64,000 nt of DNA from assembly GCA_965199495.1 (NCBI GenBank), contig CBDASK010000003.1:224001-288000 (forward strand), in the 5' to 3' direction. This document shows positions 38,001 through 50,000 of the stretch, piece after piece. A program made the position numbers. The stretch's first letter is position 1; every line of letters starts with the position of its first letter. Source of the stretch: Abditibacterium sp. (GTDB taxonomy: Bacteria; Armatimonadota; Abditibacteriia; Abditibacteriales; Abditibacteriaceae).

Positions 38001-41000
38001 GGTCGTCGGTTGGCGAAATCAGCGGCAAAAGCGCCTGAAGCGTGGATTTGGCGTCGCCCCACAAATTGACTTCCATCGGATAGCGCACGCCCAATTGTCC
38101 GGGCCGCAAATCGATCTGAACACCGCGCGCCTGACCCGTCGGCGGCAAATAGCCCCCGTAGGGATAATTGGAGCCGATCATTACAAAGGTGTCGCAATCC
38201 TGCATCATTTTATAGGAAGGCAAGCTGCCCAGAAGTCCCAATTGTTCGCAATTGAAATCAATATCGCCGGGCACGACATCTTTGCCGCGCAACGCCGTCG
38301 TGATGCCCGCGCCGGTTACGCGCGCGAGTTCCAAAACTTCGTCGGTCGCGCCCAAAGCGCCCGCACCGACCAAAAGCGCGACGCGTTGGCCCGCTTTCAA
38401 AATATCGGCGGCGCGCGTCAGTTCTTCCAACGGCGGCGTAATTTTGATCGAAGTCGGCGCCGACGAACTGCGCGAAACATCAAGTTTTTTGGGCGCGTCC
38501 TCGCTTTTCATCTTTTGCACATCGTGCGGAATAACGATAACGCACGGTTGCCGGTGCGTAAGGGCAATGCGACAGGCGCGGTCAACCACGACTTGCGCTT
38601 GCGCGGGCGTCACGATGGTTTGAACGTAAGCCGCGACATCGGAAAAGGTGCGTTCGAGATTATTTTCCTGTTGATAGGCGCTGCCCAATGTTTCCAACGC
38701 CTGTTGCCCAACGATAGCCACGACGGGCTGGTTGTCCATCTGCGCATCGTAGAGACCGTTGAGCATATGAAAAGCGCCGGGGCTGGAAGTCGCCGTGCAG
38801 ACGCCGATTTTGCCCGTCCATTTGGCGTAGGCTGTCGCCATCAACGCGCAAATTTCTTCGTGCGTCGGGCGGATAAATTTCAGCGGCAAATCAGCGTCAT
38901 CGGCGCGGCCCAAGGCGCCATCGAAACCGCCGATGCCGTCGCCGGGAAAGCCGAAAATGTGGTCAACGCCCCATTCGAGGAGGCGGTCAATTACGAAGTC
39001 GCTGACGGTGTCGCGGGAATGAACAATGCTCATAAGGGTGCTCGATAAAACAGAGATCAGGTCGTTCCAAACGAAGCCTTTGTCTTGTTCTTTATGTGAG
39101 CAACCCGAATGCCTTATCAAACAATTGGAGGTTTTTCAGGCCGAGTTAATCCAACGGAAACCGTTGTAACATCACTATTTTCGGCGTGATTACGGACAAA
39201 CCAACGCGAAAATAAGAGTTTTAGAAGTTAAGCCCCAGCCTTGGCGCTCGCCAATTCCAAAACGGCGCGCGCGATGTCGCGGGCGGCGGCGGGTTTGGCG
39301 AGCTTGCGCGCTTCCTCGCCCATTGCCCGCAAATCTTTGGCGTCGCGTAGCATCTCTTCGACTGTTTTGAGCAAGTTCGGCCCATCGCAATCGGACTGAC
39401 GCAGAATGCGGGCGGCACCCGCGTTGACGACCATTTGCGCGTTTTTGGTTTGCTCGTCGCCGCCCGTCGGCACGAGCGGAACGTAAAGCGCCGCTTTGCC
39501 GACCGCGCACATTTCGGTGACGGTTCCAGCGCCCGCGCGCCCGATGACCAAATCGGCGAGGGCCAAAACATCGCGCAGTTCGTGGCGAATGAATTTGCTC
39601 AACGCGTAGCGCCGTTGCAAGTGTTCCGGCAACGCCAGACGTGCCCGCGTTAAACGGTCGAAATCGTTCTCCTTTTCGGCGGATTGTTCGCCGCACTGGT
39701 GAATCACGCGCGCCTTTTCCAATAATTGCGGCAGACAATCTTCGATGGCGCGATTAATCACGCGCGCGCCCAAACTACCGCCGGTAATATAAATCGCGGA
39801 CAGGTTTTCGTCGGATAAACCGAAGTGTTGTGTCGCCGTGGCTGCATCGCCGCCGAAGATCGAGGCGCGCACGGGATTGCCCGCAACCCACGCGATTTCT
39901 TTGGCGCGCGGCGACAAAGAATGGCGCGCGCCTTCCCACGACAGCGCGATGCGCGTGGCAAAACGCGAATTAATGCGGTTGGCCAGACCGATTTGCACGG
40001 TTTGTTCGTGAATCAAAACTGGAATGTGATTCAAACCCGCCGCGACAACCGGCGGAACGGTGACGTAACCACCAGTCGCCAAAACCACATCAGGCTTGAA
40101 CTTCTTGATTTGATAAAGCGACTGCGCCAAACCGACGGGAATGCGAAATTGGTCGAGCAAGTTTTCCGGCGAAATGTAGCGGCGCAGTTTGCCCGTCGAA
40201 ATCGGCACGAACGGAATGCCCGCCGCCTCGACCAAACCGCGCTCCAAACCTTTTTTGGAGCCGATATATAAAAATTGCGCGTCGGGTTTCATCTGGCGTA
40301 GCGTTTCGATGAGCGCGAGGGCGGGCGAAATGTGGCCCGACGTGCCGCCGCCGGTCACCAAGATTCGCGGGGAATCGGAAGAATTGGTTGCCATATCTTA
40401 GGCCGCGCAGTTTGGCAGAAATAGCCGATAAAGACACGCAGAAACTATCGGCAACTCTTTTCCATTTCCGCCAACAGAGCCACCGCGTGTCGGCCCGGTT
40501 CGCGATAAATCGAATACAACGGCCCGACGACTTTAGCCGCTTCATCGGCATCGAACCATGCCGCTCCGCCTAATTTCGCCTGCGCTTCGACGTTTAATAA
40601 TACCGGCAATGCGCCCGGCATGATGGCACCGATGCCCGCCAAAATCGGCCCGCCCGCCCGCGCGATTTCGATCAAGCGCTCGACGTTGCGCGCGCCGATG
40701 CGGCCATAGGAAAGCGTCTCGACTTCCAAACCGGGCACGATGACTTTAACCGAATAAATGCCTTTATCGGCGGACGAAAAATCGGCGACCAGCACTTCCA
40801 AATCGTCGGCGCGCAATCTTTCGACGACGAAATTTAATAACGCGGTTTTATCGTCGTTAAGCGATTCAGGTTGCGTCGGCACGTCGGCAAAATCAATCCA
40901 ATTTTCGACGCGATGAACCGGCGCCATATTTTCGCGCACCTGTTCTAAATTTAATTTCGACCAATCGCTCAAACTTTGCAGCGCGCGTTGTTCTTCATCT

Positions 41001-47000: not shown

Positions 47001-50000
47001 GAGCGGCTGGCCCAGCAACATCTGCGTCAAATCCAGACCGTGCGGCGCCAAATCAATCAGCGCGCCACCGCCCGCGCGCGCGGGGTCAACGCGCCAGTTA
47101 TCGTGCGAACCGTCGTCCGAATCGGGCTTCCAAGTTGGCGGCGTCCAGCACGCATAATGCACACGCGCCAGCGTGATGTCGCCCAACTCTCCGCGTTCAA
47201 TCAACGCGCGCAACTGTTCGTGTGCCGCGTGAAATCGTTGGTCGAATGCCGTCGCGTAAACCACGTTATTTTCGGCGCAAACTTCAGTCATGGCGCGCGC
47301 GTCTTCGAGCGTCGTCGCCATCGGTTTTTCGCACAAAACGTGCTTGCCCGCGCGCGCCGCTCTTTCCGTTATCGCCCGATGCAAATGGTTGGGCGTCGCC
47401 ACATAAACCGCGTCAACATCGCATTGGAGCATCGCATTTAAATCGGTAAACGTCGCAGCATCGGGCGTTTGCGATTTAATGCGCTCCAATGCAGCCACGT
47501 CGGGGTCGCACAGCGCGACGAGCGCGGCGGACGGCGCAACGCGCAACGCGGGCGCGACGTAATCGCGCGCGACCCAGCCGCAACCGACGAGGCCCCAGCG
47601 AATAGTTTGTCTTTTCATGTTGATTTTCAAATTCGCGCAGAACGTAGCAACGCAGCAACGCGGATTTGAAACTTATTTGAATCCCGCTTCGCGCATAATT
47701 TCCAACTGAAACTTTTGCACCGGGCCGGGATGAATAATATCCATTTCGTCCAAAGCCACGTCGAGCGTGAAGGCGGCGCTACGCGCGTGCCATTCCATTT
47801 CCAAAACGCGGTCGAGCGAATCGGCGACCTGAAACGATTTCGACGTGGGCGTATCAGCGCGATAAACGTTATCGAGCGCCGCGCGCGCTTTTTCGGCCAA
47901 CTCATCGGGCAACTGTGCCAGCGAACGTTCGCGAAATGTTTGTATGAGCGGCGCGTGATATTCACCCAGCAAAACGTCGCCTGCATCGCCCGCGTCGGGC
48001 AAATAAGCATTGTGAAAATGATGGCTTAGCCCGGTGAGAAAACATTCGCCCGCGTCGGCCTTATATAAAGACGACGCCAAAACGCAATTGACCGCGACGA
48101 TTGAGCAATGTTCGGCGTGATTTTCGGTCGGCTCTAACACGACACGCGCATAGCCGGGCCGTGTCGCCCCGGCCCGTGGCTGCGTTGCCAACCGTTCGAC
48201 GAATTCCGCTTCTTTTACAGATTTATAGCCCTTCACATTGGATTGGCTACACCTGTTCAAGGGCGGGGCTTGCGCCCTCTTCCAATCGTGACTTCTCTTC
48301 GCGCCCCGATTGGAAGAGGGCGCAAGCCCCGCCCTTGGAGCCTTCGCACTGTGAAGGGCTATATCAACAGATGAATTTCCATCATCTTGAATTGTGAGCG
48401 AATCGGACGAGAGTTGGGCGCGCAGTTTTCGGGCGAATTCGTCGGGCAAAACGTTCGCGCTGGCATCGAACGCGCGTTGCAGAATTTGCAGACGCGCGTC
48501 GGCTGCGATGTCGCCATCGTCCAAAACGTGCGCGTCAATGCCCGCCAACTTCGCCGCGACGACGGCGTTGGCCGTTTCGCTCAAAGCGACAATTTCGAGC
48601 GATTCGCCCGCGACTAAACGCGCCCAACTGCAACGAAACAAACGCTCCGCGATGGAGCCGTCAAGACCAGCCACGCGCAGGCGCTTGAGATCGTTGAGTT
48701 CGCGAAACAAAGGCAATAGCGAGGAAACGGAAGCCATTTATGCCTCGACCAACTCGTGCGCGTTGGCGCGCGCTTTCATCTTTTCAATCGCTTGCATCAT
48801 CAACTCTTCGTCCACTTCGTGAACATTGAAACCTTCGCCAATCGAGCGCAACATTTGAATCGTCAGCTCGCCGCCCAAATGTTCGCGAAATTCGCGCAAG
48901 CCGCGAAACACCGAGTCGGGATGATCCAAATCATCGGCGTGATTATCCAATTCGGGCGTGTATAAATCGAAGCCGACGGCTTCGAGCGTTTGCAAAACGC
49001 GTTCGGCGTCTTCGTCGCAAATCCAACCTTGCAACGCCGAATACGTCACATCCAATGCCAGACCAATCGCGACGGCTTCGGCGTGACGCAACCGATAATC
49101 AGTGACTTGTTCCAATTTATGCGCCGACCAATGGCCGAAATCCAAGGGGCGCGAACTGCCCATTTCAAACGGATCGCCACCCTCGCAAATGTGGCGGACG
49201 TGCAATTGCGCGCAACGATGAATCAGTTCGCCCATCGCGCCCATGTCGCGCGCGGCGAGCTTGTCGGCGTTGGCTTCGATGAAATCGAAAAAATCGGCGT
49301 CTTTGATCAAAGCGACTTTAATCGCTTCGGCGATGCCGCCGCGCCATTCGCGGTCGGGCAAAGTTTCCAAAAACTTGAAATCGTTTAACACGGCATAAGC
49401 GGGCGCGAAGGTGCCGATGAAGTTCTTTTTGCCGAAGAAATTAATGCCGTTTTTCACGCCGACGCCCGAATCGTTCTGGCTTAAAGTTGTCGTTGGCACG
49501 CGCAATAAACGGATGCCCCGGTGCGCCGTGGCTGCGGCGTAGCCGACCAAATCGAGAATCGCGCCGCCGCCGATGACGGCGAGGTAAGAATGCCGGTCTA
49601 AACCGGTTTCGTTGACGGCGGTTTGAATTTCCAAAACCAGTTCGGGCCGGTTCTTGATATTTTCGCCGCCTTCCAAAAGCAAAACTTCGCCCACCAATTC
49701 GAGTTCGTTGTGGGCGGCAAAATAAGACTCGATGCGCGTTTTCACGTCGCAAAAATCGTTGACGGATTGGTCAACAACCCACAAAATGCGCGTCGGTTTG
49801 GCGAGCGCATCGTCGCCGCGCACGACTTGAATCAAAAGGGAATTTTCGGGAGCAAACAGGTCGGTAGTGAAATGAACGTCGTAATTAAAAGCGACTTGAA
49901 CGTGTCCTTGAATAGGTTGCAACATGAGACTTTTCGCGCCAAGTTTTGCCGTTTGCGGACGACAAGAGTCGGCGGCAAACGAACGATAAATTGGGGTTGG

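Follow-up and report, generated by a model that had tools for sequence, protein, structure and literature searches.

A YcaO-containing operon shared by Abditibacterium and myxobacteria as a candidate cassette for a small glycosylated cyclitol

What do two YcaO enzymes do in an operon of cyclitol and sugar genes that has no evident peptide gene? The question arises from a 64,000-nucleotide stretch of the genome of the soil bacterium Abditibacterium sp. (the window), in which eight co-directional genes form a minus-strand operon at 40445-49925 (Table 1). From 5' to 3' they encode an EboD-type cyclase, an HD-fold protein, a GFO/IDH/MocA oxidoreductase, a zinc-ribbon/metallo-beta-lactamase (MBL) protein, YcaO_A, a GT4 glycosyltransferase, a PIG-L deacetylase and YcaO_B, at intergenic distances of -40 (overlap) to 168 nt. 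The genome-wide survey's note had described these co-directional genes and their families. All eight ORFs were recovered at the same coordinates and strand, and Pfam and NCBIfam bore out the families, the weak HD and MBL matches being backed by structure models. The eight genes are best explained as a single biosynthetic cassette, horizontally mobile, whose product would be a small glycosylated cyclitol. We propose that it follows the core of mycothiol synthesis to a GlcN-(deoxy)cyclitol and includes a YcaO step that needs no peptide, at a probability of roughly 0.45. If this is true, YcaO, so far known only on peptides and proteins, works on a small molecule.

Table 1. Features of the operon and its repeats, in window coordinates.
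Feature	Coordinates	Strand	Length	Evidence or remark
Sugar-phosphate cyclase, EboD/DEIS type	48738..49925	-	395 aa	DHQ_synthase + DHQS_C (Pfam)
In-frame palindromic repeat within HD gene	48225..48392			Coincides with alignment insert; 120 blastn matches in genome
HD-fold protein	47673..48737	-	354 aa	HD_3 weak, E 0.0017, under gathering score (Pfam)
GFO/IDH/MocA NAD(P) oxidoreductase	46566..47630	-	354 aa as listed	GFO_IDH_MocA (Pfam)
Zinc-ribbon + MBL-fold protein	45754..46605	-	283 aa	Lactamase_B + rubredoxin-like ribbon, weak, E 0.004-0.006
YcaO_A	44294..45763	-	489 aa	PF02624, 9.5e-49
Long imperfect hairpin	44165..44300		51-nt arms	Fills YcaO_A-GT4 gap; 10 genome blastn matches
GT4 glycosyltransferase, MshA/BshA/PimA-like	42908..44155	-	415 aa	Glycos_transf_1 + Glyco_trans_4 (Pfam)
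PIG-L/LmbE-family deacetylase	42137..42880	-	247 aa	PF02585, 1.5e-15
Long imperfect hairpin	41985..42140		67-nt arms	Fills PIG-L-YcaO_B gap; 26 genome blastn matches
YcaO_B	40445..41968	-	507 aa	PF02624, 2.1e-54

The cyclase scored 566 bits against NCBIfam model NF004852 (cut-off 333) and is an additional copy, the canonical aroB/DHQS with its stronger DHQ_synthase match lying elsewhere in the genome; a genome search found no myo-inositol-1-phosphate synthase (MIPS). Its relatives are 87% identical in locus L001 and 45-66% identical in DEIS-type metagenome loci. In the HD protein, a helical N-terminal domain precedes a YfbR/HDDC2-like HD domain with invariant H210, H239, H240, D248, D306, D309 and H336, and the structure model (pLDDT 80.5, below 50 at residues 117-171) matched YfbR/HDDC2/OxsA phosphohydrolases over residues 171-333 (VIA Z 10-12). 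The oxidoreductase, whose length is given as listed because its TTG start is uncertain, has as its nearest solved chain a cyclic-ketone reductase, 1,5-anhydro-D-fructose reductase (5e-39), with inositol dehydrogenases at about 1e-20; by homology, its probable activity is ketoreduction or dehydrogenation of a cyclitol or keto-sugar. The MBL protein model (pLDDT 89.9) matched MBL-fold chains in Foldseek (best E 4.9e-10), with C18, C21, C34, C37 (CxxC...CxxC), H126, H128, H181, D201 and H218 invariant. The end of its gene and the beginning of YcaO_A share 10 nt, and in P0118 the protein is fused to YcaO (residues 1-248 against MBL residues 36-282, 52% identity); the zinc-ribbon/MBL protein is the genetic partner of YcaO_A. 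MshA, BshA and PimA are the top full-length solved relatives of the GT4 (3c48/3c4q, 3e-19 across residues 15-389; BshA 5d00; PimA), and the nearest solved chains to PIG-L are teicoplanin-type GlcNAc deacetylases (about 2e-8), which act on an aglycone-bound sugar.

The operon is common to Abditibacterium, myxobacteria and many uncultured bacteria, YcaO always included. The nine related loci counted in the survey were found again, and the HD-GFO-MBL-YcaO-GT4-PIG-L core is kept in an Abditibacterium MAG, six Corallococcus records, a Chthoniobacterales MAG and most of 78 metagenome loci. Sequence reached at least 5.5 kb upstream and at least 4.5 kb downstream in 24 loci; of these, 20 held a cyclitol-forming enzyme (8 EboD-type, 12 MIPS, none both), 20 the GFO oxidoreductase, 19 GT4 and PIG-L, and 14 the MBL protein; in a single subclade of the MIPS type, which makes up 8 of the 29 complete cassettes, no MBL partner lies within 10 kb. 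YcaO stood without any cassette gene in the remaining four (L025, L073, L087 and L088), so the family occurs in other contexts too. Cassette frequency was patchy in three phyla (4/201, 35/301 and 1/301 genomes).

It had been feared that, with no EboD-like gene in Corallococcus, the cyclitol part might be lineage-specific. This concern fell away, since MIPS and a TIM-barrel enzyme replace EboD there. Across all 87 loci the TIM barrel, whose solved relatives include IolE, was present in 18 of 18 MIPS cases and 0 of 13 EboD-type cases, and the two architectures were interleaved on the YcaO tree. The cyclitol part thus appears conserved by non-orthologous replacement, a strong argument for a cyclitol product, and we are fairly confident that the cassette is a cyclitol-glycoside pathway. 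Together with the GT4 and PIG-L relatives, the substitution upholds this portion of the survey's GlcN-cyclitol reading; its paromamine analogy is incomplete, as no aminotransferase belonging to the cassette was found in the window or related loci.

In the proposed pathway, drawn from gene families and solved relatives, the EboD-type cyclase would convert a hexose phosphate to deoxy-inosose, a function reported for this type in PMC12904256, whose account of the route has a phosphate-free product; in other lineages MIPS and the TIM-barrel enzyme would give an equivalent ring. The oxidoreductase would set the keto/hydroxyl state of the ring, the MshA-like GT4 would attach N-acetylglucosamine, and PIG-L would take off the acetyl group to leave a GlcN-cyclitol core, as in the first steps to mycothiol. 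The HD-fold protein would probably be a phosphatase, against which it must be said that cyclisation should already free the phosphate in the EboD route.

Known systems share parts of this logic. The early mycothiol pathway (Ino1 MIPS, MshA GT4, MshA2 phosphatase, MshB PIG-L) has in common with the cassette a cyclitol source, GT4, PIG-L and a candidate phosphatase, and the MIPS variant copies its gene set; however, the cassette GT4 reached 89 bits against an MshA equivalog cut-off of 462, MshC and MshD were not found, GFO, MBL-fold and YcaO proteins are extra, and the cyclase can be of the EboD type, giving deoxy-inosose. Bacillithiol synthesis (BshA, BshB, BshC) resembles it in the GT4 and PIG-L pair, with BshA among the nearest solved GT4s, but the BshA model scored 98 (cut-off 274) and BshB1 only 16 bits, the genome lacks BshC, and the acceptor would be a cyclitol instead of malate. 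Aminoglycoside pseudodisaccharides are made by DOI synthase, an aminotransferase, a GT4 (NeoM/BtrM) and a PIG-L enzyme (NeoL/BtrD); the DHQS-like cyclase, GlcNAc transferase and deacetylase are shared, whereas the cassette is without an aminotransferase and those clusters are not known to contain YcaO or the MBL-fold protein. With the ebo system the likeness is the cyclase: neither a UbiA prenyltransferase nor any other ebo gene lies in or beside the cassette, where MIPS plus TIM barrel can stand in for the cyclase.

YcaO_B is a paralogue of YcaO_A (41% identity, BLASTP 6e-108) and falls in a separate clade of the YcaO tree. YcaO_A stayed under the cut-off of every NCBIfam YcaO subfamily model, far under for the S12, McrA and TOMM types, and its closest solved chain is MJ1094, a methanogen McrA-type YcaO (5e-23). 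The motif residues E70, E73, E183, R187 and D188 are invariant, as is a glutamine, Q186, where the ExxERD motif of MJ1094 has Glu; from the alignment, this substitution could mean altered YcaO chemistry, and we count it against the proposed pathway. By Pfam and NCBIfam families, YcaO is the only ATP-using enzyme of the cassette. We infer that it acts on a small-molecule amide: the YcaOs and their zinc-ribbon/MBL partner would catalyse the sole ATP-dependent step, an O-phosphorylation-driven replacement at an acetamide yielding an amidine, thioamide or oxazoline. The 2-acetamido group of GlcNAc-cyclitol is the only amide that the cassette logic introduces and hence the most likely site, although we hold this assignment to be doubtful. 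A point against it is that PIG-L would destroy that very acetamide.

Bottromycin biosynthesis uses a pair of YcaOs with a metallo-hydrolase, and the cassette likewise pairs YcaO paralogues, with a protein of metal-hydrolase fold encoded next to them. ItfB is described in PMC11002830 as an amidine-forming YcaO that uses ammonium. The cassette shares the YcaO domain with these partner-less or unusually partnered enzymes and with MJ1094 (McrA thioamidation), but they act on peptides or proteins, whereas the cassette has a sugar/cyclitol context, no conserved peptide gene and a different YcaO partner, the zinc-ribbon/MBL protein fused to YcaO in some organisms.

The operon gaps in the window contained no plausible peptide ORF. 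Both in-cluster gaps are occupied by dispersed hairpin repeats, and the sequence at 44165..44300 is such a repeat and not a peptide gene. When 1491 small ORFs from the intergenic regions of 63 loci were compared, no conserved family emerged, the sole families spanning loci being minus-strand frames over unmasked methyltransferase or HD genes, and the GFO-YcaO gaps of MBL-less loci held no conserved frame. TfuA was not found in the genome, no E1/ThiF-like neighbour was seen in the window or the examined related-locus neighbours, and no recognition-domain partner occurred among annotated neighbours. The survey's description of the YcaO pair as peptide-free is thus supported as far as neighbourhood analysis reaches. 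Against a small-molecule role, YcaO-centred literature searches found no YcaO with a documented non-peptide substrate. A literature search found no published YcaO-bearing cyclitol-sugar operon. On balance we lean slightly towards a substrate that is neither peptide nor protein.

The precursor or target could be encoded elsewhere, as with McrA or ribosomal protein S12. The substrate of the YcaOs would then be a peptide or protein from another locus or one of the cassette's own proteins, such as the MBL partner with its cysteine-rich ribbon, and the sugar genes would decorate that target or be co-regulated. Peptides and proteins are the substrates of all characterised YcaOs, the target of MJ1094 is encoded elsewhere, and some family members are located outside the cassette; we nevertheless judge this unlikely, since it would hardly account for the tight and recurrent linkage to cyclitol-forming enzymes from two unrelated families, and the missing small-ORF family, TfuA and recognition-domain partner and the low S12, McrA and TOMM scores also speak against it.

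At slightly longer odds, the GlcN-cyclitol core would be made and YcaO would serve as an ATP-dependent ligase or kinase, not as an amide activator; for example, it could acylate the amine of GlcN with cysteine or a different acid in place of MshC/BshC, so that the product would be a low-molecular-weight thiol or an N-acyl pseudodisaccharide of a new kind. Copying of the mycothiol core logic by GT4, PIG-L and cyclitol source, YcaO as the only ATP user, a genome without BshC and without MshC above cut-off, a conserved neighbouring HD phosphohydrolase that fits a phosphorylated intermediate, and Q186 all suit this alternative. To our knowledge, however, no YcaO has been shown to ligate carboxylates or to act simply as a kinase. 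The cassette has no conserved gene for supplying sulfur or amino acids, and its patchy spread is more in keeping with a specialised metabolite than with a core redox buffer.

A GPI/PIM-type inositol glycolipid or envelope glycan, with the GT4 acting as PIG-A or PimA beside PIG-L and YcaO working on a lipid head group or attachment, is improbable. In its favour, the nearest solved GT4s include PimA, PIG-L belongs to the GlcNAc-PI deacetylase family, a membrane GT2/GT21-like or LPG-synthase-TM protein comes next in some MIPS-type loci and murG adjoins the operon in the window, but no CDP-alcohol phosphatidyltransferase or lipid-linking gene was seen among examined neighbours, and the reported phosphate-free EboD product is unlike phosphatidylinositol chemistry. 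The cell-wall role that murG had suggested to the survey was discarded, because the genome has no other copy and the gene is unlinked to the cassette outside the closest relative.

Repeats also reach into a coding sequence of the operon. Residues 117-171 of the HD protein are a disordered 55-residue insert encoded by a dispersed hairpin repeat, which gave sub-threshold matches to hairpin-type Rfam families on both strands at 48256-48338.

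An ORF check of the window reproduced, with exactly the same coordinates, the eight co-directional minus-strand genes described in the genome-wide survey's note. By Pfam and NCBIfam, these genes include a DHQS-like sugar-phosphate cyclase, a GFO/IDH/MocA oxidoreductase (GFO), a GT4 glycosyltransferase, a PIG-L deacetylase and two YcaO proteins, here called YcaO_A and YcaO_B. Among named relatives, an Abditibacterium MAG is closest to the locus. The cyclase is of the EboD type (NCBIfam NF004852, 566 bits vs a cut-off of 333) and represents an additional copy, with a stronger DHQ_synthase match elsewhere in the genome that is likely aroB; the genome search found no myo-inositol-1-phosphate synthase (MIPS). 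The cassette shares its cyclase type with the ebo cluster, but none of eboA, B, C, E and F (the UbiA prenyltransferase gene among them) was found in the surrounding 35.6-54.7 kb, which encodes 15 proteins. The gene murG was rejected as a cassette member, since it is the sole murG copy of the genome and lies outside the conserved block of the related loci. An Rfam scan of 39000-51500 detected no riboswitch or known RNA, only sub-threshold microRNA-like matches that marked hairpins; the two gap hairpins were flagged on both strands, below threshold. Together with a repeat inside the HD-domain gene, they make up three different long palindromic elements. Promoter and terminator scanning of the window performed no better than on shuffled sequences.

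Coordinates of the cassette, its YcaO genes and hairpin repeats (window positions), and of methyltransferase genes in related loci (locus positions)
Feature	Coordinates	Place	Remarks
Cassette	40445-49925	window, minus strand	eight genes
YcaO_A	44294-45763	cassette
YcaO_B	40445-41968	cassette
Hairpin repeat	48225-48392	in frame inside HD gene	palindromic; family with 120 blastn hits in genome
Hairpin repeat	41985-42140	PIG-L-YcaO_B gap	long imperfect, 67-nt arms; 26 blastn hits in genome
Hairpin repeat	44165-44300	YcaO_A-GT4 gap	long imperfect, 51-nt arms; 10 blastn hits in genome
SAM methyltransferase	6881-8092	locus L028	example
SAM methyltransferase	7648-8832	locus L041	example
SAM methyltransferase		17 further loci

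The window proteins were compared by tblastn with 9 genome loci and 78 metagenome loci. Results showed that the cassette occurs in two forms. One consists of an EboD-type cyclase, HD protein, (methyltransferase), GFO, a zinc-ribbon/metallo-beta-lactamase (MBL)-like protein, YcaO, GT4, PIG-L and (second YcaO), where brackets mark genes that may be missing; the other consists of MIPS, HD protein, (methyltransferase), GFO, (MBL), YcaO, a TIM-barrel enzyme, GT4 and PIG-L. In Corallococcus, a MATE transporter gene lies upstream of the cassette, which encodes MIPS and a TIM barrel resembling xylose isomerase. Flanks of at least 5.5 kb upstream and at least 4.5 kb downstream were available for 24 loci. 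Among these, a cyclase was present in 20 (EboD-type in 8, MIPS in 12, both in none), GFO in 20, GT4 with PIG-L in 19, MBL in 14 and the TIM barrel in 12; four loci (L025, L073, L087 and L088) had none of these genes. Over all 87 loci, the TIM barrel accompanied MIPS in 18 of 18 cases and the EboD-type cyclase in 0 of 13. The two cyclase architectures were interleaved on a FastTree phylogeny of 84 YcaO sequences. This interchange of two unrelated six-carbon cyclitol routes ahead of the same downstream genes is the strongest evidence for a cyclitol-containing small-molecule product. Because the MIPS route needs the TIM-barrel enzyme, a member of the IolE/isomerase superfamily, the pattern further suggests that the two routes meet at a deoxy-inosose or deoxy-inositol.

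In 19 of the 29 loci that span from cyclase to PIG-L, a SAM methyltransferase of about 400 aa is encoded between HD and GFO. The window, all three loci scorable as having two YcaOs and the six Corallococcus loci with a single YcaO lack it, as does L033, whose contig ends 124 bp past PIG-L, so that a second YcaO was unscorable. In the same tree, YcaO_B forms its own clade, adjoining a sister group of 'orphan' YcaOs. These orphans (L023-L027, L073, L074 and L002) stand outside the cassette, beside genes for a sugar ABC transporter, GT2/GT61 glycosyltransferases and BNR/sortilin-repeat proteins; an apparently conserved unknown protein of 510-560 aa upstream of them was rejected, its composition and position being those of a reading frame antisense to a solute-binding-protein gene. 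Tandem YcaO duplicates were also seen in MIPS-type cassettes of some lineages (L058:2546-5509; genomes G443, G449 and G374), and are a second, independent route to two YcaOs.

The enzymes downstream of the cyclase were compared with solved structures. The best full-length relatives of the GT4 were 3c48 and 3c4q (3e-19), titled 'predicted glycosyltransferases', which we take to be Corynebacterium MshA, followed by BshA, PimA and another inositol-phosphate glycosyltransferase. The nearest solved relatives of PIG-L were teicoplanin-type GlcNAc deacetylases, and those of the TIM barrel were Art22, UlaE and IolE. GFO matched 1,5-anhydro-D-fructose reductase (5e-39) well ahead of inositol dehydrogenases (about 1e-20). 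By analogy with early mycothiol formation, the GT4 and PIG-L would be expected to yield a GlcN-cyclitol. Neither marker of mycothiol biosynthesis was recovered: the MshA equivalog model TIGR03449 scored 89 bits on the GT4, below 462, and the best genome match to the MshC ligase model TIGR03447 scored 265 bits vs 485 and is probably CysRS.

The HD protein, which may be the phosphatase of a mycothiol-like scheme, gave a weak HD_3 match in Pfam. Its predicted model (pLDDT 80.5) has a C-terminal domain resembling the phosphohydrolases YfbR, HDDC2 and OxsA (VIA Z 10-12; rmsd 2.7-5.2 over 131-156 residues), while a Foldseek search with it returned no match at E <= 0.001. The metal doublet is HH (H239, H240) instead of HD. 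Residues 117-171 form a disordered 55-residue insert that is missing in homologues and is encoded by the in-frame palindromic repeat.

YcaO_A and YcaO_B are paralogues with 41% identity and are the only YcaO genes in this 4.8-Mb, 95%-complete genome. Their YcaO domains (PF02624) were found at E values of 9.5e-49 and 2.1e-54 (167 and 186 bits vs a gathering cut-off of 25.7). Every NCBIfam YcaO subfamily model, by comparison, stayed far under its cut-off: the SagD-type azoline-forming TOMM model TIGR03604 gave 95 and 102 bits (cut-off 219), the McrA-type thioamide-forming model TIGR03266 gave 77 and 92 bits (cut-off 365), and the S12 methylthiotransferase accessory model NF040716 gave 15.9 bits for YcaO_A (cut-off 700) and no match for YcaO_B. 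Among solved relatives, the methanogen McrA-type YcaO MJ1094 came first (5e-23), followed by TruD, LynD, the M. kandleri YcaO and MusD. The acidic ATP/Mg-binding motifs of YcaO enzymes are defined as SxxxExxE and ExxER. E70, E73, E183, R187 and D188 were invariant in 12 aligned sequences and aligned to MJ1094, and the second Glu of the ExxERD of MJ1094 was replaced in all 12 family members by an invariant Gln (Q186 of YcaO_A). An E1-like, ThiF-like or Ocin-ThiF-like partner was not found among the cassette and flanking proteins of the window and the related loci examined, nor was TfuA found in the window's 95%-complete genome. Since TfuA-independent thioamide-forming YcaOs exist, the YcaOs here may still perform similar chemistry.

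The candidate partner of the YcaO is the MBL-like protein. It showed weak rubredoxin-ribbon and Lactamase_B matches in Pfam; by sequence, both it and the HD protein matched solved structures at chance level only. Its predicted model (pLDDT 89.9) has a clear MBL fold, with the uncharacterised Anabaena hydrolase 2p97 as best Foldseek match (E 4.9e-10). Across 20 aligned homologues, four cysteines (CxxC...CxxC) and H126, H128, H181, D201 and H218 were invariant, and the classical HxHxDH motif was reduced to HxH (H126, H128). The MBL stop and the YcaO_A start overlap by 10 nt. Among the matches listed, 10 of 120 YcaO relatives were 729-813 aa long (within P0108-P0120), and for one of these, P0118, alignment verified an MBL-YcaO fusion, in which residues 1-248, N-terminal to the YcaO domain, match MBL residues 36-282 at 52% identity. 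The MBL gene was absent within 10 kb in one MIPS subclade (8 of the 29 complete cassettes). The MBL-like ORF is listed with a TTG start, which gives it a 40-nt overlap with the end of GFO (46566-46605); the homologue alignment suggests that the true start lies further downstream, near the first CxxC.

At the level of the neighbourhood, the earlier claim that no small precursor-peptide gene accompanies the YcaOs held. The three candidate gaps of the window contained no convincing ORF, and two of them are hairpins. We then compared 1491 small ORFs (15-120 aa) outside masked core genes over 63 loci. Families common to many loci were rejected, their coordinates placing them antisense at the positions of the unmasked methyltransferase and HD genes; the remaining shared families were restricted to near-identical loci, and none included the window or the related locus L001. 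The GFO-YcaO spacer of loci lacking MBL showed no conserved frame. A precursor gene kept beside the modifying enzyme, as expected of a RiPP cluster, was thus seen neither across the 63 loci nor in the gaps of the window.

Activation by the YcaO of the amide of a GlcNAc-cyclitol intermediate is favoured, because the YcaO is the sole ATP-using enzyme of the cassette and the GlcNAc acetamide is the sole amide in the cassette's logic. We hold this reading loosely, since PIG-L competes for the same acetamide group and the phosphate for the HD enzyme is unaccounted for in the EboD route. Three rival readings carry the most weight. The YcaO may be a ligase or kinase rather than an amide activator, consistent with the lack of BshC and MshC in the genome; its target may be a protein or peptide encoded elsewhere, outside the neighbourhood searched for small ORFs; or the cassette may make a membrane glycolipid. 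In its full form, the amide-activation reading would make this the first YcaO family with a carbohydrate-type small-molecule substrate: with MBL as a new type of partner, sometimes fused to it, it would convert the acetamido group of GlcNAc-cyclitol to an amidine, thioamide or oxazoline in an ATP-driven reaction. The product would be a modified pseudodisaccharide of an unprecedented class, plausibly glycosidase-inhibitor-like or metal-binding, from myxobacteria and scattered soil lineages. We consider this full form tentative, with a probability of roughly 0.3.

YcaO enzymes are taken to signal the modification of ribosomal peptides or proteins. In literature listings, no paper was found that describes this cassette or that ties YcaO to a cyclitol, to inositol, to MshA/MshB/PIG-L or to an MBL partner. 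If a conserved YcaO family is tied to cyclitol and amino-sugar genes, amide-activation chemistry would be widened to small molecules, and genome-mining calls that label such loci RiPP clusters would need correction. The interchange of the EboD-type cyclase with MIPS and the TIM barrel would also place the EboD product in a second biological setting. The question is directly testable, as the carriers include culturable Corallococcus and about one-ninth of the sampled genomes in their phylum.

The distribution of YcaO_A-type proteins is patchy. With YcaO_A as query, the window's phylum gave matches in 4 of 201 sampled genomes (E <= 1e-30) and its genus in 3 of 10, with the window's own genome counted. 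At E <= 1e-60, the phylum to which the Corallococcus genome belongs gave matches in 35 of 301 sampled genomes, and that of a Chthoniobacterales MAG in 1 of 301, namely the MAG itself. A word-indexed search identified 2452 YcaO relatives at E <= 1e-20 among 8000 candidates scored. The cassette itself was seen in three phyla, by named records, and in metagenome contigs. In one related locus, repeated gene pairs for a Tox-REase-5 toxin and Imm52 immunity protein (L004:14352-18605) come after the Corallococcus cassette and are probably an unrelated polymorphic-toxin array.
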